A stretch of 64,000 nt of DNA from an uncultured Pirellulales bacterium. Lineage in GTDB: Bacteria > Planctomycetota > Phycisphaerae > Sedimentisphaerales > Anaerobacaceae. Both the position numbers and the translations under genes were made by a program. Position 1 is the stretch's first letter; the number at the start of each line of letters is the position of its first letter. Shown piece by piece: positions 2,139 through 64,000 of the stretch. The notes beneath the pieces are model-generated. The model saw nothing but the letters and a program-made list of their open reading frames with translations, was not told the origin of the DNA and made no database searches. The DNA is taken from NCBI GenBank assembly GCA_964431695.1, contig CAYSKI010000020.1, positions 1,877 through 65,876 of the forward strand. The letters are read 5' to 3'.

Positions 2139-2400
2139 AAGTTTCCCCCCTGCAGGCAAGATCAAGTGAACAAAAAAGTTATATTGAAATGTACTATGCT
2201 ATACTCCCATTTTGGCGGGTATTATACCACAAGGTGCGGGATTTTCAAGTGAATTTTCTCCGGCACGAACAGGGGAAAACCCGCCAAATTATCCAGCTAA
2301 GTGCTTTGTTTACAAATGATTATATATATATCATCCGGAAAAAAAACGATTCGGGCCTTAAAAAAAAACTCATGATTTTCGGAGGGATAATACGAAAATA

Positions 2401-2429
2401 TTGACAATATCCGATAATTATGTTAAATT
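2401..2429 (+). promoter_or_regulatory. candidate sigma70 promoter for the pseudopilin gene
   Basis: TTGACA (2401-2406), 17-nt spacer, TAAATT (2424-2429). Confidence 0.4.
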
Positions 2430-2515
2430 TTAACTGTGTCAATTGTTGGAGCGATTTGTTATCTTAATTGTTAAGTTTATTAACAATCGATATATAAATT
2501 CGGAGTCTTAAAGCA

Positions 2516-3325
2516 ATGTCAAACAATAAAAACAAAGCCTTCACACTCATAGAACTTCTGGTAGTAATTTCAATAATCGCCTTACTGATGTCAATCCTGA
2601 TGCCGACTCTGAACCAGGTAAAAAAACAGGCAAAAACAGTGATGTGTCAGGCGCGGTTAAGAGAATGGGGTTTGCTCTTTAAGCTTTATACAGATGATTA
2701 TCAAGGCAATTTCAATCCGGGCTGGGATGTCGCCGACGGGTCAGCATTATGGATGAATGCCCTGAGACCTTACTACAATGACAACTGGGAAATGCTGCTC
2801 TGTCCAACTGCTGAAAGACTCATGTTAAATGCATCCGACTGGGGCACTTTTAAGGCGGCGTCACGAGAAATACCCACACCGGGAGGTGGCAGGCAAAATT
2901 ACATATTCAGTTATAGCATTAATTCCTGGACGAACAATATGAAGGGGGACCGCGGAACTCGCAAGGTCGAATGGTTTTGGAAGAATGTCAACAATGTAAC
3001 AAGAGCAGATCAAATACCTGTCTTCGCGGATTCTACATGGCATGATGCCTGGCCGCTCCATACGGACAACCCGCCGGAAACAATGGACGCTTTCGGAATC
3101 GGCGACCAGGGCACAGAAGGGGAGATGGATCATTTTTGTATCAACCGACATGACGGTTTTATCAACTCCATGTTCATGGATTGGTCCACAAGACGCGTGG
3201 GACTGAAAGAATTGTGGACATTGAAGTGGCATCGTGATTTCAATACTCAATACGTATGGACGAAAGCCGGCGGTGCGGTTGACGAAAATTGGCCTCTTTG
3301 GATGAGACACTTCAAAGCTTACTAA
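2516..3325 (+). CDS. prepilin-type N-terminal cleavage/methylation domain protein (DUF1559 / H-X9-DG-like pseudopilin)
   Basis: MSNNKNKA|FTLIELLVVISIIALLMSILMPTL class-III signal. Near the C-terminus, INRHDGFINSMFMDWS resembles the H-X9-D(G) box. Confidence 0.85.
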   Translation: MSNNKNKAFTLIELLVVISIIALLMSILMPTLNQVKKQAKTVMCQARLREWGLLFKLYTDDYQGNFNPGWDVADGSALWMNALRPYYNDNWEMLLCPTAERLMLNASDWGTFKAASREIPTPGGGRQNYIFSYSINSWTNNMKGDRGTRKVEWFWKNVNNVTRADQIPVFADSTWHDAWPLHTDNPPETMDAFGIGDQGTEGEMDHFCINRHDGFINSMFMDWSTRRVGLKELWTLKWHRDFNTQYVWTKAGGAVDENWPLWMRHFKAY

Positions 3326-3438
3326 AAAAGTGCGCATAATTGAGAGAGCACTTTTTAGAAGCGATCCCATACCTGTTATATCTTAATAAACATCACAAAA
3401 CGTCCCTTCTTCGGGATGATTATTACCGGATAAAAGCG

Positions 3439-3467
3439 TTGACGCAAACCGGCGTGCCTGATACAAT
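3439..3467 (+). promoter_or_regulatory. candidate sigma70 promoter for tRNA-His
   Basis: TTGACG (3439-3444), 17-nt spacer, TACAAT (3462-3467), about 27 nt upstream of the tRNA 5' end. Confidence 0.6.
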
Positions 3468-21356: not shown

Positions 21357-24300
21357 ATGAAAGCAGAAAAAAGCACACAAGCCAAACGGCCCAAAAAAAC
21401 CGGCAGACGAATCATCCAGATTGTATCGGCTCTATTCGTCGTTCTAATCGTATTCGTATTTCTGCTGGCGCCCGTATTTATTTCCTCCGAGAAAGGCCGG
21501 CAGATAATCCTGGCACAGATAAACAAATCGATCGAAGGCCGGGCCGATTTCACCGATCTGTCGATGGGCTGGTTTAAGGGAATCAAGATTGCAGACCTGA
21601 GCTTCGATGACACTTCCGGCGAAATTTCCGTCAAGGTCAAACAAATCGCCACTGAACCACATTATGGCTCACTTTTGACAGGCAACCTGTCATTCGGCCA
21701 AACCACCATCGACGAGCCAAGAGTCCGGATAAATCTCAAGGAAAAGCCGCCTGCCGAAATCACTCCCGCGACGGAACCTAAAACCGTTCCGAAGGAAACG
21801 GCGGGTATCGCGCTTGTCACTGATATCACGGTCAACAACGGCAACGTAAAAGTCACGGACACAAAAAATAAAACCGTCGAGCTGGCACAGATAAACTCCA
21901 ATATAAATTTAAAACCTCCGGGAAAACAGTCGAGCTTCGATTTGAATATGATTGTGGCGGCCAATGACAAACAATCCAAAGTCCAGGCCGAAGGTCGAAT
22001 CACACCCGTTAAGACAAAAGAAAAATCCGGCTGGACCTTCGAAGCCGCCGACGGCGACCTGACTGTTGAGGTCAACGACCTGGACCTCGAATCCCTGGAG
22101 TCGTTCTTTGCTTTGGCAGGTGTTGACATCCAGACCAAAGGTGATATTTCAGCCAACCTTAAAGGTCAACTGGTTAACGGCCAAATCGAAAATGTCACCG
22201 GAACAGTCAGGGGAACAAACCTCGATATAACCACAGCGGCATTAAAAGGCGATCATTTGAAAACCAAGGTTCTCGACGCCGATATAAATCTCGCCCGTAA
22301 AGGTCAAATGATGAACATCAACAATCTAAATGTTACAACCGACTGGGCTAATCTACAGGCCACGGGCTCACTGCCAACAACCATAGAATCAATGGACAGC
22401 TTCCTCGCATCCGATTCGAATTATGATTTAAATGGAACGTTCAATTGCAACATCGCCTCGCTTGCTTCCCAGATGCCTCATACCATAGGACTCAAAGAAG
22501 GCACGACGGTATCATCAGGCATAATAAACGGCACAATTAAAACCGCGACGCAAAACGGAAAAAAACAAATCCAGGCCGAAGCGGAATTGACGAATTTAAA
22601 AGGCCTTGTGGAAGGAAAGGAAGTCTCACTTTCTCAGCCAATAAGGGCTTCCGCGCGAGTTTCTCCCGATAAGGCCGGAATAAATATTGATAATTTCGAC
22701 CTAACGGCCTCGTTCGCGAAAATTAACGCCAGCGGCAATCTCGATCAGATAAAATTCGATGCTCAGGCCGACATGGCCAGGCTGCAGAGCGAGTTCGGAC
22801 AATTTGTTGATATCGGCCCCTACAAAATCGCCGGGCAGTTGACAGAAGCCGGAGAAGTCTCGCTCAACGATAAAACAATTACCCTTTCCGCATCCTCGAC
22901 CGTCAAAGGGCTGAATATCACAGGGCCTAACAATGTGACTGCTTCCGTACCAACCGGCGAAGCGACTTATGCCCTTAATTACGACAGGGAAAACAGTATC
23001 CTTAATATTAATTCACTCGACGCCGGAATGAGTTTCGGCCGTGTTAATATCAAAGACGCGGTTGTGCCTCTCAAGAAAGAGACCTCCAAGGCATTCGACA
23101 TGATTGTCAATGCCCAACAAATAGACCTTGGCAAGCTGCGGCCTTTCGCCGTTTTGTTCGGCGGGGTACCTGAGAAAATAGAGCTGTCCGGTATCGCAGA
23201 ATCGCAGGTTTCAATTAGTTCCCAAAAACAGATATATACGATCAAGTCCGACTCGACAAAAATCACAAATCTTAAGTTTGCTTATCCTGAAAAGAAACCT
23301 TTTGAGCAAAAAGAGGTTTCGATGGCTTTTGATGCCGAAATTGATCCCGTAAAGGAAAGATTCAAATTAAATGGTTACCAGTTGGATAGCCCTCAATTCA
23401 AAATCCGCAAAGGAACGTTCAGCATGATGAACAAGGACGGGAAAACCGAACTGGCCGGGCAACTTGATTTGGAATATGACTGGTCGGCGGTAAGTGCCCT
23501 TGCCGGTCAGTTTTTGCCCGAGGACCTTGTACTCCAGGGGACAAGAAAAGACAGAATAAGTTTCGCCAGCGAATATCCCACCGACCAGAAAGATCAACTT
23601 TTATCAAACCTCAGCGCCAACGCCGGACTTGGTTTCGAGAAAGCCGATTACATGGGTCTTGATTTCGGGCCCACGGATGTGAATATTGTCGTCCAAAACG
23701 GCCTGCTGAAAATTGTGCCGTTCAAAACAACCGTCAACGAAGGCCAATTTAATTTCGGCGCCCAGGCAGACTTCAAGCAACAACCTGCGTTGTTTAAGAC
23801 GGCCGAACCAATGCAGATTATGAAAGACATAAGAATCAACGACCAGACAACCGGAAAGCTGCTGAAGTATCTTAATCCTATTTTTGCCGATGCCGCAAAC
23901 GTCAATGGTATTGCAAATCTTAACTGCGAGAAGCTCAGCATACCACTGAATGCAGCGGCCAAGAACAAGGCGGAGATTGTCGGCACGGTTTCCATAAGCC
24001 AATTGAACCTTCAGACCTCCGATTTTCTCGGGCAGCTTCTTACAGTGGTCGGGGGTGGTGTCCGGGGAACTATCATAACAATTCATCCCACAAGGTTCGT
24101 TTTACGCGACGGGTATCTCAGATACGACGACATGCAAATGGACATCGGTGACAATCCGGTTAATTTCAAAGGTGTCATCGGCCTGGATAAATCCATAGAG
24201 GAAATGTCAGTGACATTACCTTATACGACTGAAGGCAGGACGATAAGGACAGGAAGTCAAAGCGCCAGAAGAATTACGCTGCCTATCACCGGCACTGTCG

Positions 24301-58545: not shown

Positions 58546-59406
58546 ATGAGCACGAAACTGTTAATTCTAATTTTGGCTCTTTCATCCGGCACCAATATAC
58601 CGAATATACAAACTCCACCGCCGGCTCCGTTACGTGACGGTTTTATCCTCAGAGATATCGACGGCAGATTAACATGCCCCGACAGCAATGACGTATGGTT
58701 CTTTGAGCTGGACTCGGATGTAACCGATAATGAAACTGTCATTAAAGCCCGGACAAAACTGAGGCTGCTGCCGTCGGCCACACTCGAAAAGATTATTACC
58801 GATGCCAATGAACGTTCCGTAAAACACTACAGGCTCGATGTCAGAGTTACACAATATAAAGGCGGGAATTTTCTGTTCCCATTTTATTTTCTGCCCATAA
58901 GCACCCCCAAAACATCCGAGTCAACTTCGCCGGATAAAACAGCTCCCGCGAAAGATTCCACAGATGACCCGAATCTCAATGATGAGAACAATATACTGAC
59001 CATACCGCCGGATGTATTGGAGAAGATTGAAGCAGCAAGAGCAAAGATAGCGCAAAGCGGGCAGCGCATATCCAACAGCGATGAAATTTCCACCGACAGA
59101 CAGAAATCGGCGACTGAAAAACAAAATCCGCCTGTTTACGATTCGGCTTTGATCGACAGAGCCGCGATTTTGGTCGAGCAAAAAAACGGTGGATTCACCT
59201 TCGTACTGGATGCCTTAGGTCGAAACGCACCTCAGGTCTGGTTCCAACTGCTGCCATGCGAAGCGCTGGAGCTGAGCGAGTTGATACAATCTGCCGTACC
59301 GGACCCCGTACGATTCAAAATAGCAGGTATCGTAACCAAATATAAAGGCACCAACTATCTGCTGCTGCAGAAGGCAACCCGGATTTATAGCCAGGGAAAT
59401 TTTTGA
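58546..59406 (+). CDS. hypothetical secreted protein with an internally duplicated ~90-aa module
   Basis: Signal peptide. The modules end ..LRLLPSATLEKII..YRLDVRVTQYKGGNFLF and ..FQLLPCEALELSELI..FKIAGIVTKYKGTNYLL, separated by a low-complexity linker. Confidence 0.55.
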   Translation: MSTKLLILILALSSGTNIPNIQTPPPAPLRDGFILRDIDGRLTCPDSNDVWFFELDSDVTDNETVIKARTKLRLLPSATLEKIITDANERSVKHYRLDVRVTQYKGGNFLFPFYFLPISTPKTSESTSPDKTAPAKDSTDDPNLNDENNILTIPPDVLEKIEAARAKIAQSGQRISNSDEISTDRQKSATEKQNPPVYDSALIDRAAILVEQKNGGFTFVLDALGRNAPQVWFQLLPCEALELSELIQSAVPDPVRFKIAGIVTKYKGTNYLLLQKATRIYSQGNF

Positions 59407-59422
59407 ATACAAAGGATAAAAA

Positions 59423-60736
59423 ATGCCCCACGAACTCGATAAAATTCTTATCTCTGCATCAAAGCCGGATTTCGAAAAACGAATGGGAAAATTTCGCTCG
59501 ACCATAATGCGGGCGGCGCGGTCCACCAGTCTGGGAAGCAGGGAAAACAAACAGGTGACCGATATACTTCGCAATGTTATCAAGCGCGGCGACCAGGCGG
59601 TAGCGGAATATACGGAAAAGTTCGACGGGGTAAAACTGACACCCGAACAATTCCGGGTAAGTAACATCCGGATGAAAAAAGCTTACATGGAAATCGACAA
59701 AAATATTTTAACTTCACTGCGTCAGGTGATCGACAATGTCAGGAACTATCAAACAGAAATTTTCATCGGCAATTTCGAACATCCCGGAATAAAATATACT
59801 CCCATTCAGAGGATCGGCATCTGTGTACCGGGGGCTTCTGCCCCCCTGCCGTCCACAGTAATTATGACCGCCGTACCGGCCCAGGTAGCAGGCGTCAAAG
59901 AGATAGTCGTCGTTTCTCCGCCAAGACATGAAAGCAGTATTCACCCAGCTATTCTGGCCGTTTGTCACGAATTGGAAATAGAGGAAATCTATCAAATCGG
60001 CGGAGTTCAGGCCGTCGGGGCTTTGGCCGCCGGGACTGAGACTATCAAAAAGGTAGATATGATTGTTGGACCGGGCAACAAGTGGGTGCAGGCAGCCAAA
60101 AAGATCGTATCCGGTGACTATGTCGGTATCGATTCGCTCGCCGGTCCGAGCGAAGTCCTTATCATCACAAACGAAGATGCCAATCCGGCGTGGGTGGCAG
60201 CCGACATGCTCAGCCAGGCAGAGCACGCCACGGACAGCAGTGCCATCGTTGTCACGGACTCGCAGCAGCTCGCGAAGGAAACGCTCGCGGAACTGAAAAA
60301 GCAGGTCAAAGAATTACAACGAGCGGAAGAAGTAAAACAATCCCTCAAGAAATTCAGTGCCATTGTTGTAGTGGACGATATCGCCAAAGCCATCGAGATG
60401 GCGGACGATTTTGCCTCGGAACATTTGGAAATTCAATGCGGCGACAAAAGCAGAGAAATAGCCCAAAAGATAAAAAACGCCGGTGCAATTTTCATCGGCT
60501 CCTATACACCCGTAGCGGTCGGGGACTATTGGGCCGGACCAAGCCACACCCTGCCGACCGGGATGCGGGCGAAATTCGCAAGCGCGGTGACAAGCAACGA
60601 CTTTATAAAATCCACCAGTATTATCGAATACGATAACGACCAGCTGGCTCAATGTGCCGCGGATATTATTCGCCTGGCCGAAGTCGAGGGACTTAACGCC
60701 CACGCAAAAAGCGTGAAAATACGACATGAAACATAA
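59423..60736 (+). CDS. hisD: histidinol dehydrogenase
   Basis: GICVPGASAPLPSTVIMTAVPAQVAGV, GPGNKWVQAAK, AGPSEVLII, QAEHA, HLEIQ. Confidence 0.95.
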   Translation: MPHELDKILISASKPDFEKRMGKFRSTIMRAARSTSLGSRENKQVTDILRNVIKRGDQAVAEYTEKFDGVKLTPEQFRVSNIRMKKAYMEIDKNILTSLRQVIDNVRNYQTEIFIGNFEHPGIKYTPIQRIGICVPGASAPLPSTVIMTAVPAQVAGVKEIVVVSPPRHESSIHPAILAVCHELEIEEIYQIGGVQAVGALAAGTETIKKVDMIVGPGNKWVQAAKKIVSGDYVGIDSLAGPSEVLIITNEDANPAWVAADMLSQAEHATDSSAIVVTDSQQLAKETLAELKKQVKELQRAEEVKQSLKKFSAIVVVDDIAKAIEMADDFASEHLEIQCGDKSREIAQKIKNAGAIFIGSYTPVAVGDYWAGPSHTLPTGMRAKFASAVTSNDFIKSTSIIEYDNDQLAQCAADIIRLAEVEGLNAHAKSVKIRHET

Positions 60737-60751
60737 CTGCTGATATACCTG

Positions 60752-61789
60752 TCACACATCCCAATTCAATTGTTGCCTGTATCGATTATAAAACCACCCT
60801 AATATATGAGCCGTGACCATCAGCAGATACATCACGACGCAGAGAATAATAAAATTCTGAATGAGTGTAAAATCCATGTCCTGCGTGATGGTGATAATGA
60901 AAAAACCTGCAGTCAAAAAAACCAGTATCATCGCGCAGTACGGCAAAAAAGCGCTGCGAATCGAGCCGGCTAAGAGAATAGGATTAAGGCCGGACAATAA
61001 AGAATCAAACATGACAAACGCCAAAAAGCTCATCGGCAGAAGCAATACTCCATATACAAACCAAATCCAGAATACCGTATCGATCCGCCGAGTGGAAAAA
61101 TAATAGGCCAGAGACGGTGCCACAAAAATTACGAAACAAACAACAGACCTCATCAACCAAAGCAATTCCCAAAAACCGGGAGTTTTATGAATTGTTTCCG
61201 GCGCCCTTATGCCGCCTTCGGCGCTGTCGCGGATACATTCACACAAATACCAGTAAAAAAACACATATAAAACAATCCGGACAAGAATAGATATACACAA
61301 CAATGGAACAACAATAACAACCATCGGCGATAACGCGGGAGTCGCAAAGCCGAGACTCCTTATAACTATTATTGAAAACCATCTTATCACAATAATAACT
61401 CCGAGGATCACCAGCCCGGACCGATTGGCCGGATAAAGGAAGATATCTATCGGCCAGGGAAACTTCCGTCCGGGCACGGATTCTTCCTCGTATCGCTCTG
61501 AACTTTGTGCAATCTTGTCTGGAGGCTCGGTAGCTTTACCGGATTCGCCGGTCCGTTTCTCCAGAGCCTCGCCAATCTGAGGCACTTCCAGAAGTGTCAA
61601 ATCGAAGGCGGAATATCTCGGGCCGTCCTTCGGCTCACTGGAACTGTCCTGTTTCGATACCGGAGCCGATTTCTGTGCTTCGGGAATAAATACAATATTC
61701 TTGCACTTCGGGCACCTGCCACTTTTACCGGCACTGCCTTCAGGCACATTGAATTTCTGGCCACAGTTGTTGCAGTGAAAATTAATCAT
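60752..61789 (-). CDS. zinc-ribbon + polytopic membrane protein, paralogue 1 of tandem family (DUF4013-like?)
   Basis: N-terminus MINFHCNNCGQKFNVPEGSAGKSGRCPKCKN (CxxC..CxxC), an acidic linker, then KFPWPIDIFLYP, YLCECIRDSAEGGIRAPE, FDSLLSGLNP and C-terminal GWFYNRYRQQLNWDV. Confidence 0.7.
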   Translation of the reverse strand: MINFHCNNCGQKFNVPEGSAGKSGRCPKCKNIVFIPEAQKSAPVSKQDSSSEPKDGPRYSAFDLTLLEVPQIGEALEKRTGESGKATEPPDKIAQSSERYEEESVPGRKFPWPIDIFLYPANRSGLVILGVIIVIRWFSIIVIRSLGFATPALSPMVVIVVPLLCISILVRIVLYVFFYWYLCECIRDSAEGGIRAPETIHKTPGFWELLWLMRSVVCFVIFVAPSLAYYFSTRRIDTVFWIWFVYGVLLLPMSFLAFVMFDSLLSGLNPILLAGSIRSAFLPYCAMILVFLTAGFFIITITQDMDFTLIQNFIILCVVMYLLMVTAHILGWFYNRYRQQLNWDV

Positions 61790-61824
61790 AAAAACTGTTT
61801 CTTCTTTACTTTAATACCGACATT

Positions 61825-62571
61825 TTACAGGCCCCAGTCAATTTTTTCCTTATACCACCAGTAGAACCAGCCCAACCGGTGCGCCAGAACAAAGACAAGA
61901 TATACTCTAAGAGCTTGTCTGAGAAATTCCCATAAGGGGAGCTTCGGTATGACCGCTGCAACGAATCCGCCAACAATGAGAAAGAACAGCACCAGCCCAA
62001 AGTACGGAAAGAATGCCCGGCATATCGACCGGACTATTTCTATCGGATTCAGGGCGTCAAAAGCATCGAACATAATTCCTCTAAGCAATGACATCGGCAG
62101 GAAAAATATTCCGTAAGCCGACAATATCCAAAACAACAAATCAGTCCGTTTAACGAAGACCGAATATAGCAACATCGGCGCTATACAGATGGCTACACAA
62201 CCTATAACAATAAATAACTGAGAAATAAAGTCACCTATGCTAATTGTATTCGGCATCGAGACATCCGTAGCCCGCCGATGACCCCTGGCACTGCCAGTTA
62301 CACAGTCTGCAATGTAATAGAACACATAGCTATAGAAAATGATATAAAGAACAAAAGCAACAGGCTCGGTGATCTCAGCAGTCGCTTGCCCAAGAATCGG
62401 CCCAAGGAAATGCCCAATTAATCCGACGAACCCAGAGATCAACAGTGGCACAATTACAAAGACCGCAAGGTGTATCATGCCGGATGCGCTAACAGGATAG
62501 AGAAAGGCATCGATAAGCCAGGGCAGCTTACATTCATCCGCCAACGGTGGTTCTTCTTCGAGTATTTTCAT
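61825..62571 (-). CDS. polytopic membrane protein, paralogue 2 (no zinc ribbon)
   Basis: KLPWLIDAFLYP, YIADCVTGSARGHRRATD, FDAFDALNP, GWFYWWYKEKIDWGL. Confidence 0.7.
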   Translation of the reverse strand: MKILEEEPPLADECKLPWLIDAFLYPVSASGMIHLAVFVIVPLLISGFVGLIGHFLGPILGQATAEITEPVAFVLYIIFYSYVFYYIADCVTGSARGHRRATDVSMPNTISIGDFISQLFIVIGCVAICIAPMLLYSVFVKRTDLLFWILSAYGIFFLPMSLLRGIMFDAFDALNPIEIVRSICRAFFPYFGLVLFFLIVGGFVAAVIPKLPLWEFLRQALRVYLVFVLAHRLGWFYWWYKEKIDWGL

Positions 62572-62601
62572 CGGACCGTCTTCTTTATTCGAAACAAAAT
62601 A

Positions 62602-63621
62602 TCATACTTCCCAGTTAAGTTTTTTCCTATACCTATGATAGAACCTGCCTAATAATCCAACTGCAACAAATATCATATAAAGCTGAATCGCCCGAAGGAA
62701 GAATGGCACAATCGGCAGAGGATGAAAACTATAAAAGCGGGAGTTTATCTTGAAACAAATATATGAACCGACAAAGAATATTATGATCAATCCACAATAA
62801 GGTATAAAAGTACTTAATATAGACCGTACTATTAACAACGGATTCAAAGCACTAAACGAATCAAAAAACACTACGGCAAGCAAAACCATCGGAAAAAAGA
62901 ATCCGCCAGAAGCTAAGAGCAACCAATAAATCAAGTCACTTCGTTCGGTAGCGATATAATATATAGCCACAGGACAAAAACAGACAGCGATAGAACCAGC
63001 CACAACAAATAATTGCGATACGCAATCCCACTTATCGGTATCAGTCGGATGCATCCAAAAATCCGGTGCACGACAATGACCTTGAGCACCGTCACGAATA
63101 CACTCGGTAAAGTAATACAGCATATATGAAACCGGAAAAAAATACACGATCGGCGCATATTCTGTACCTAAGCCCACCCTTGCCATGATGAGCGGACAAA
63201 GCAGAAATATTAGAAGCCACAAACTTATAAGATGGATAACACCTGCCAAATTAAACGGGTACAGAAATATATCGATAAACCACGGCAGCTTGGACACAGT
63301 TTTGTCCTCAGGTTTTGTTTCCTCTGCATCCGTGATTTCTCCTGGTTCCTGAAGACCTTTGCACGACCCATCAGGCAATTGTTGTTGAGCAATCGATTCT
63401 ACTGCCGTCTCTCTATTTTGTACAATATCAAAAAGAGAGGAGTCTATGCCGGACACTTTCATATTCTCCTCTACTCCACTTGTGTCTGTGCGTGAAGCGC
63501 TATCATGTAGCCCGGGAACAATGACCCCTTGCCTGCACTTCGGGCACACGACTTTTTTACTGACGTGACTTTCGGGTATATTGAATTCCCGGCCACAGTT
63601 GTCGCAGTGAAACTCAATCAT
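62602..63621 (-). CDS. zinc-ribbon + polytopic membrane protein, paralogue 3
   Basis: MIEFHCDNCGREFNIPESHVSKKVVCPKCRQ, KLPWFIDIFLYP, YFTECIRDGAQGHCRAPD, FDSFSALNP, GRFYHRYRKKLNWEV. Confidence 0.7.
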   Translation of the reverse strand: MIEFHCDNCGREFNIPESHVSKKVVCPKCRQGVIVPGLHDSASRTDTSGVEENMKVSGIDSSLFDIVQNRETAVESIAQQQLPDGSCKGLQEPGEITDAEETKPEDKTVSKLPWFIDIFLYPFNLAGVIHLISLWLLIFLLCPLIMARVGLGTEYAPIVYFFPVSYMLYYFTECIRDGAQGHCRAPDFWMHPTDTDKWDCVSQLFVVAGSIAVCFCPVAIYYIATERSDLIYWLLLASGGFFFPMVLLAVVFFDSFSALNPLLIVRSILSTFIPYCGLIIIFFVGSYICFKINSRFYSFHPLPIVPFFLRAIQLYMIFVAVGLLGRFYHRYRKKLNWEV

Positions 63622-63637
63622 AAATAAAGTTCTCTTG

Positions 63638-64000
63638 TTAAGACTTTAAATCCCATTTTAATTTTTTCTTATACCGCCAGTAAAATCTCCCTGTAAGATG
63701 AGCAAGAATAAAAGCCGCATAAAACATCACAAGCCGAAGGACAAAATCCCAAAATATCGATAACCGCAATTCCAGAAAAATTATACGGACCATTCCGGCA
63801 AAAAGGACAAACAGCAATACAAGTCCCATGTAAGGCCAAAAGGTATTGAGTATCGAGCGCAGTAAAACTCGTGGGTCAAGACCGGAAACGGAATCATGCA
63901 GTATAATCGATAAAAAACTAATCGGATAAAAGAAAATCGCAGCAATCAACAGCATCCAGGCGATAATATCTATCCTCCCGGTAAAAAGGATATAGAGCAC
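63638..64000 (-). CDS. polytopic membrane protein, paralogue 4 (N-terminus outside window)
   Basis: C-terminal 120 aa are visible: HDSVSGLDP..RSILNTFWPY..GRFYWRYKKKLKWDLKS. Confidence 0.65.
   Translation of the reverse strand: MLYILFTGRIDIIAWMLLIAAIFFYPISFLSIILHDSVSGLDPRVLLRSILNTFWPYMGLVLLFVLFAGMVRIIFLELRLSIFWDFVLRLVMFYAAFILAHLTGRFYWRYKKKLKWDLKS

Follow-up and report, generated by a model that had tools for sequence, protein, structure and literature searches.

A tandem array of four paralogous membrane proteins in an uncultured Sedimentisphaerales bacterium: an uncharacterised family within a DUF4013-like superfamily

The four-gene array and its predicted products

The DNA analysed here (the window) is a stretch of 64,000 nucleotides from an uncultured Pirellulales bacterium, placed by GTDB in the order Sedimentisphaerales of the Phycisphaerae (Planctomycetota), and corresponds to positions 1877–65876 of contig CAYSKI010000020.1 (C20; assembly GCA_964431695.1); the contig runs to 67,777. 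At the end of the window lies a tandem array of four genes, all on the minus strand, encoding paralogous polytopic membrane proteins that are labelled P1 to P4 in rising window coordinate, the order of transcription running from P4 first to P1 last. The last gene of the array, P1 (60752–61789; 345 residues), encodes a zinc ribbon, an acidic linker and a predicted core of six transmembrane helices; P2 (61825–62571; 248 residues) encodes the core only, with no ribbon; and P3 (62602–63621; 339 residues) again carries a ribbon. Only the C-terminal 120 residues of P4, the first gene, fall inside the window (63638–64000), and extension along the contig takes the full gene to window-equivalent 64657, giving a protein of ~339 residues whose N-terminus also bears a ribbon and an acidic linker, and whose probable start is the ATG of MIEFYCENCG. 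The open reading frames leave spacers of 35 nt (P1/P2), 30 nt (P2/P3) and 16 nt (P3/P4), in agreement with a preliminary description of this window, made from the sequence alone, that had placed the four co-directional minus-strand genes 16–35 nt apart. The same description counted at least four genes and had the array continuing past the window edge; in this respect it requires revision, because the 3.8 kb of contig beyond the edge contain only the remainder of P4 followed by a plus-strand tRNA-Thr(UGU), and the array therefore comprises exactly four tandem members.

When the window's own genome was searched with P2, the other three proteins were returned with E = 9e-43, 5e-42 and 5e-33 at 33–41% identity, far beyond chance, with no further match; the proteins are thus clear paralogues, as had been proposed. 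Identity among the four is 32–41%, and a four-way alignment (32–36% identity to P1) contains 22 invariant columns and every motif that had been listed from inspection: KLPW-ID-FLYP, Y..ECIRDSA.G..RAP, FF.PM.LL, FDS...LNP..RSI..F.PY and G(R/W)FY.RY..L.W. A hidden Markov model (HMM) of the family recovers P1 with E = 6.7e-92 and P4 with E = 2.2e-93. There are 228 homologues of P2, and its orthologues are nearly all exactly 248 residues long.

The ribbon occupies residues 1–33 of P1 (61691–61789, minus strand; CNNC-X16-CPKC) and of P3 (63523–63621, minus strand; CDNC-X16-CPKC). In P1 it is marked by sub-threshold Zn_ribbon_4 and Zn_ribbon_8 matches and by a ribbon HMM (E = 6e-19), and in P3 by sub-threshold Zn_ribbon_8/FmdB matches, by AlphaFold and by Foldseek. 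The spacing is CxxC-X16-CxxC in P1, P3 and P4, rather than the X17–19 first reported; the assignment of a ribbon to P1 and P3 and of none to P2 stands, and contig extension adds P4. As had also been noted, domains are gained or lost among members, the ribbon being present or missing member by member. Across 133 family members Zn_ribbon_8 matches 35, and P1–P4 score below the curated cut-offs. Solved look-alikes were found for the ribbon only, namely LysW and RNA polymerase ribbons (Foldseek); the P3 ribbon superposes on LysW 5eio_C with a root-mean-square deviation of 2.2 Å over 39 residues (prob 0.98). These comparisons suggest that the N-terminal CxxC-X16-CxxC segment forms a zinc-ribbon-type fold with putative zinc binding. 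The same module heads other small proteins of this genome, on contigs C43 (165 residues from the ribbon, soluble) and C64 (135 residues, one transmembrane helix), and in relatives there are dozens of ribbon-only matches in open reading frames of ~170–330 residues; judged by these occurrences, the ribbon appears to be a reused N-terminal module in this lineage.

AlphaFold models were prepared for P2 with a 10-sequence alignment (predicted local distance difference test (pLDDT) 83, predicted template modelling score 0.80) and for full-length P3 with a 112-sequence alignment, in which the core blocks reach pLDDT 94–98. The predicted core begins with a short amphipathic helix bearing KLPW.ID.FLYP, followed by six long helices that are linked on one side by turns of 2–5 residues; an extra short interfacial helix follows the FDS..LNP motif. 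The P3 ribbon is modelled as four short strands (pLDDT ~92), and residues 44–92 (63346–63492, minus strand), where pLDDT falls below 50 (44–62 and 64–92), are predicted to form a disordered linker; the N-terminal 115 residues of P3 contain 20 Asp + Glu versus 12 Lys + Arg. Each protein would thus have about six transmembrane helices in an N-in/C-in arrangement according to the models and the charge distribution, because no signal peptide is found in the proteins, the ribbon needs the cytoplasm, there is an even number of helices, and the C-termini are strongly basic. With this topology every conserved motif would fall in the inner leaflet or on the cytoplasmic side of the membrane, and hardly any of the protein would be periplasmic, the periplasmic loops being predicted at just 2–5 residues; the ribbon would hang in the cytoplasm on a flexible acidic tether.

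The core and its relation to DUF4013

Scans of the four proteins against Pfam, NCBIfam, PADLOC and PHROG gave nothing above threshold, the only returns being sub-threshold or chance-level ribbon matches; with respect to anti-phage defence and phage families (PADLOC, PHROG), chance-level ribbon matches were again all that appeared. A Pfam scan of the 133 family members also found no core family, and the stray matches among them are to DUF7937 (1 member) and DUF6095 (4 members). No match was obtained in a profile search of PDB sequences with the family, and Foldseek gave none for the core at E<=1e-3 against the PDB with both models, nor at the same cut-off against the viral structure library BFVD. 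The core thus belongs to no curated family and has a confidently predicted fold with no relative in the PDB. Pfam and NCBIfam assign it to no well-characterised transporter or enzyme, and the preliminary view of a zinc-ribbon and polytopic membrane family with no assigned function is upheld.

It had also been suggested that the core may correspond to DUF4013 (PF13197). This bacterial and archaeal membrane family is uncharacterised and has no known function, so that membership would explain nothing. Direct membership is rejected. The DUF4013 HMM matches none of the four proteins at E<=1, none of these genes in a six-frame genome search at E<=10 and none of the 133 family members at E<=0.01, and alignment of the family core with eight canonical planctomycete DUF4013 domains by HHalign is not significant (~1%, E = 0.056, covering only the C-terminal 77 columns). 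A more distant relationship is nevertheless indicated by bridge sequences. Of 251 genomes sampled from the phylum, 20 contain DUF4013, and four of the proteins matched, which pass its Pfam gathering score (26.9 bits) weakly, at 27.7–32 bits with nearly the whole model covered, visibly share the motifs of the array family. In HHalign comparisons these bridge proteins reach a probability of 98.5% (E = 3.7e-15) against the array family and of 94.7% (E = 5.8e-8) against canonical DUF4013, and the family HMM matches three of the four (1.8e-23 to 5.7e-10). Because the bridge sequences match both sides, the array family is placed by transitive homology as a divergent branch, outside Pfam coverage, of a DUF4013-like superfamily; the earlier suggestion thus fails as a direct match and survives in this transitive form. 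The four genes constitute a real, well-defined and uncharacterised family within that superfamily.

Few residues persist across the superfamily, these being only P132, P159, M160, Y190 and G234 (P2 numbering), i.e. Pro, Met, Tyr and Gly. Asp21, Cys90, Ser94, Arg100 and His231 are specific to the two clades of array-type proteins (A and B, below), and none is conserved in the more distant clade C (also below), in the bridge sequences or in canonical DUF4013; a Cys-His-Asp site as a feature of the superfamily is accordingly rejected. In bridge members from other planctomycete families (loci L049, L050 and L054) a different N-terminal region stands in the ribbon's place, with a TPR-type soluble look by eye; if it is of that type, the cytoplasmic head domain could be exchangeable within the superfamily. 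Literature searches on DUF4013, and on PilT with zinc ribbon and Planctomycetes, yielded nothing relevant.

Evolution, distribution and genomic setting of the array

A tree built from 135 core domains splits into two clades with support 98 (a quick tree and a FastTree run underlie the clade results). Clade A contains P1 and P4 and has a ribbon in 76 of 80 members; clade B contains P2 and P3, with a ribbon in 13 of 55 members, kept in P3 and found in just 1 of 42 members of the P2 orthogroup. In transcription order the window's array therefore reads A-B-B-A. Among 46 multi-gene arrays (median spacer 45 nt), 41 contain both A and B and the other five only A, with no array made up of B alone. Conservation falls on the same residues in both clades (A/B: Cys90 99/95%, Arg100 100/96%, Tyr190 100/100%), and thus neither looks like a decayed copy of the other; an exception is P3, which has Gly in place of the His231 conserved in other members.

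Orthologues of each paralogue are 63–82% identical, compared with 32–41% between paralogues. The ratio of nonsynonymous to synonymous substitution rates (dN/dS) is 0.20–0.33 for P1 (orthologues 69–78% identical), 0.13–0.23 for P2, 0.18–0.24 for P3 (63–66% identical) and 0.18–0.25 for P4. All four genes are therefore under purifying selection (dN/dS 0.13–0.33 overall), and diversifying selection is rejected by these values. In a tree rooted on DUF4013 the single-copy genes of other taxonomic families are basal, from which it follows that the duplications arose within the window's own family. These patterns point to an old, maintained paralogue set rather than a diversifying one. Its make-up does vary: two genomes of the same genus have P4>P1 and P4>P3, respectively, and in genome G009 both A and B have been kept although the locus is split over two contigs.

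The wider family is large. An exhaustive profile search found 1,703 clusters (50% identity) at E<=1e-3, 294 of them at E<=1e-30, and the named genomes that carry it are almost all Sedimentisphaerales, Phycisphaerae or Planctomycetota metagenome-assembled genomes. When the phylum was sampled evenly, 20 of 301 genomes gave a match. Seven of these belong to the window's order, the window's own genome among them; the ten genomes from the remaining orders of the class gave none, and the other 13 matches, elsewhere in the phylum, are weak. The family is centred on Sedimentisphaerales. Among 201 near-complete genomes of that order, 115 have an A- or B-type gene and 86 have none. Copy number is almost always one in the taxonomic families f5, f7 and f8 and one to four in the window's own family, and many small genomes have zero. 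The sole tandem pair outside Planctomycetota (locus L103) occurs in a metagenome-assembled genome labelled Candidatus Aegiribacteria and may reflect lateral transfer or an error in binning.

Conservation of the gene neighbourhood was evaluated over 81 loci. The gene alaS is directly upstream of and co-directional with the array in 62 of them, itself preceded by recA, thpR, a pfkB kinase gene and gltX, and hisD is convergent downstream in 66; in the window hisD lies at 59423–60736 on the plus strand (Pfam Histidinol_dh, E = 2.4e-147) and represents a conserved flank outside the system. Beyond hisD come a gene for an unknown secreted protein, a LOG-family gene and a conserved gene of ~660 residues that, read by eye, may encode aconitase. 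The whole block is syntenic, and the locus is thus stable and vertically inherited. Between the LOG-family gene and hisD the window encodes a 286-residue protein with no Pfam match (58546–59406, plus strand); because homologues hold this position in 52 of the 81 loci, it is taken, from sequence conservation, to be a genuine conserved gene of unknown function and not a spurious reading frame. In the window's own genome alaS (26304–23566) and recA sit on contig C4, away from the array. Directly downstream of that alaS (~23300–23433, minus strand) is a 44-residue ribbon-only reading frame, MIRFCCEQCGHNIRVRDQSAGKQGKCPKCGNNINCPTPSTYYIL, that matches the family ribbon with E = 2.7e-14 and is probably a relic of the array's ancestral place after alaS, the array now standing beside tRNA-Thr.

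With regard to transcription signals, a weak −35/−10 match (TTGTCC-17-TACAAT) lies just 5' of the P4 ATG, and no terminator-like hairpins were found in the short spacers of the array. A strong terminator-like hairpin (14 pairs plus a T run; locus L005, 7718–7750, minus strand) is located upstream of the array on the same strand, at window-equivalent ~65841–65873; its position suggests that the array may start its own transcript after this hairpin.

Clade C, its PilT-type ATPase and the possible function

Scanning the window's own genome with the ribbon HMM revealed a fifth, distant family member, assigned to a clade C, on contig C115 (locus L164, 3513–4439, plus strand), a protein of 308 residues with a ribbon and ~6 transmembrane helices (family HMM E = 1.4e-14). 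It is preceded at 61 nt by a gene for a PilT-type T2SSE ATPase (2283–3452, plus strand). Clade C is present in 129 of the 201 genomes of the order, across five families, and at least one member (A/B or C) occurs in ~81% of near-complete Sedimentisphaerales genomes. In all 30 loci of the window's taxonomic family a pilT gene is directly upstream of clade C and co-directional with it (gaps 7–350 nt); in other families it is directly upstream in 12 of 16 loci, where the remaining neighbours differ and where clade C identity drops to ~30% while that of PilT stays at 65–70%. Since the window's own genome has at least six PilT-like paralogues, the one linked to clade C is a dedicated paralogue. Genome G024 lacks clade C, and there the place after pilT is taken by an A/B-type member. 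A conserved co-directional cluster precedes or flanks family members in three genomes (in G024 at locus L022, 3109–10016, and also at L030 and L032); its order is rhomboid, radical-SAM, AAA ATPase, DUF1257, a protein combining ribbon, membrane and S26-peptidase-like parts, a TPR protein and a PilT-type ATPase.

The reading that best accommodates these results, held weakly and only as a tentative possibility, is that the paralogues form a hetero-oligomeric inner-membrane platform that docks a cytoplasmic machine. The paralogues would assemble into the platform, whose cytoplasmic face and tethered ribbons would together dock a soluble partner; the most likely partner would be a PilT-like hexameric ATPase, for which the membrane protein would act as anchor or platform. 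A hetero-oligomer, one of the two proposals of the preliminary description (the other being a diversifying family, which the dN/dS values and the 63–82% identity of orthologues contradict), is a reasonable reading because 41 of the 46 multi-gene arrays keep the two ancient clades next to each other. A PilT-like ATPase is the likeliest partner because clade C is fixed behind its dedicated pilT across the order and because the A/B-type member of G024 occupies the same place. In a broader form, which we regard as improbable, the superfamily would be a hitherto unrecognised kind of inner-membrane anchor or platform, without relation to PilC/GspF, on which PilT-type hexameric ATPases sit; clade C would serve one dedicated PilT paralogue, and the A/B array would be a hetero-oligomeric derivative whose tethered ribbons couple such a motor, or another cytoplasmic machine, to the membrane.

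Several results weigh against the platform proposal. The A/B array itself is not beside pilT, and co-occurrence of A/B with clade C is weak (among the 201 genomes both in 82, A/B only in 33, C only in 47, neither in 39; odds ratio 2.1, p = 0.018, not corrected for phylogeny). Many genomes hold a single A/B-type gene and 86 of 201 hold none, so that a heteromer is not required by the family. The conserved neighbours of the array (gltX, pfkB, thpR, recA, alaS and hisD) are housekeeping genes, and the A/B neighbourhood is therefore rejected as a functional clue. A single operon is presumed from the spacing of the genes, its sole basis, and a promoter scan of the array scored no better than shuffled sequence. 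Finally, Pfam scans reveal no similarity to known PilT/GspE platforms such as GspF/PilC in the four proteins or the 133 family members, the T2SSF domain (PF00482) of those platforms being found in none of them and not in the clade C protein either.

It is possible, though not probable, that the paralogues are instead independent and subfunctionalised, each working singly or as a homo-oligomer and having a partner or substrate of its own, the tandem order merely recording duplication history. Single-copy genomes are indeed common (f5, f7 and f8), array composition varies within a genus, and A-only arrays exist (5 of 46); the joint presence of A and B in the other 41, the retention of both in G009 despite its split locus, and short spacers free of terminator-like hairpins speak for the paralogues belonging together. 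A further alternative, considered unlikely, is that the A/B proteins are membrane-embedded enzymes or metal-binding proteins, with a site formed from Asp21, Cys90, Ser94, Arg100 and His231 near the cytoplasmic leaflet that acts on a lipid or a cytoplasmic substrate. These polar residues are 85–100% conserved in A, B and the basal single-copy members, and are modelled at cytoplasmic helix ends or in the loop between transmembrane helices 2 and 3; against such a site, only Pro, Gly and Tyr persist when clade C, the bridge sequences and canonical DUF4013 are included, P3 lacks the His, and neither the PDB profile search nor Foldseek finds similarity to a known enzyme fold.

A small-solute transporter or channel like CysZ is very unlikely. 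CysZ/EI24 (PF07264; PDB 3tx3, 6d79) resembles the core in size, helix count and its short interfacial helix, and 3tx3 is the best, and sole plausible, geometric neighbour of the first (P2) model (TM-score 0.46–0.49, prob 0.92). Its Foldseek E-value of 0.55 is not significant, however, and the match is weaker with the higher-confidence model (prob 0.23, TMt 0.43). EI24 has no Pfam match in the four proteins or the 133 members and none in the window's own genome at E<=1e-8, and HHalign of the family core against 25 planctomycete EI24/CysZ domains gives a probability of <=2.5%, by which membership is rejected at the profile level; moreover, there are no conserved charged residues within the membrane and no sulfur or transport gene is linked in the neighbourhood. 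A diversifying or defence-type family expanding by rapid duplication, which a copy number of 0–4 and the gain and loss of domains might have suggested, is largely refuted by purifying selection on old orthogroups, by a stable chromosomal position whose synteny between alaS and hisD is kept in >60 loci, and by the lack of PADLOC or PHROG matches.

A family of ~1,700 clusters (50% identity) has so far remained uncurated; were it defined and tied to DUF4013, the genes of a poorly known lineage of anaerobic sediment bacteria could be better annotated. The fixed pairing of clade C with one dedicated PilT paralogue gives DUF4013-like proteins their first functional lead. Interest in the family would rise if the link proves physical; the pairing would then point to a novel mode of attaching ATPases of the secretion superfamily to the membrane. 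The A/B tandem pairs, for their part, illustrate a route by which a homo-oligomeric membrane protein might turn into a heteromer. If the pilT link is incidental, an ordinary, though well-described, domain of unknown function remains.

Compared with known systems, the N-terminal 33 residues, with two CxxC knuckles and short β-strands, are like the FmdB/Zn_ribbon_8 and LysW-type ribbons, unlike which the ribbon here is tethered to a membrane core by a linker predicted to be disordered and acidic. With DUF4013 the array proteins share a polytopic core, often with an N-terminal CxxC...CxxC ribbon, and have P159, Y190 and G234 in common; DUF4013 differs in having neither of the A/B motifs ECIRDSA.G..RAP and AH..GRFY. 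Among the platform proteins of the secretion-ATPase superfamily, PilC/GspF are polytopic proteins of the inner membrane whose genes neighbour those for PilT/GspE-type ATPases, and TadB and TadC form a pair of paralogues that act jointly. The present family is unlike PilC/GspF in that T2SSF is not detectable, topology and motifs are different, and the four genes of the array lie beside no ATPase gene; its likeness to PilC/GspF and to TadB/TadC is one of analogy only, and consists in a clade C gene that is fixed behind a PilT-type gene.

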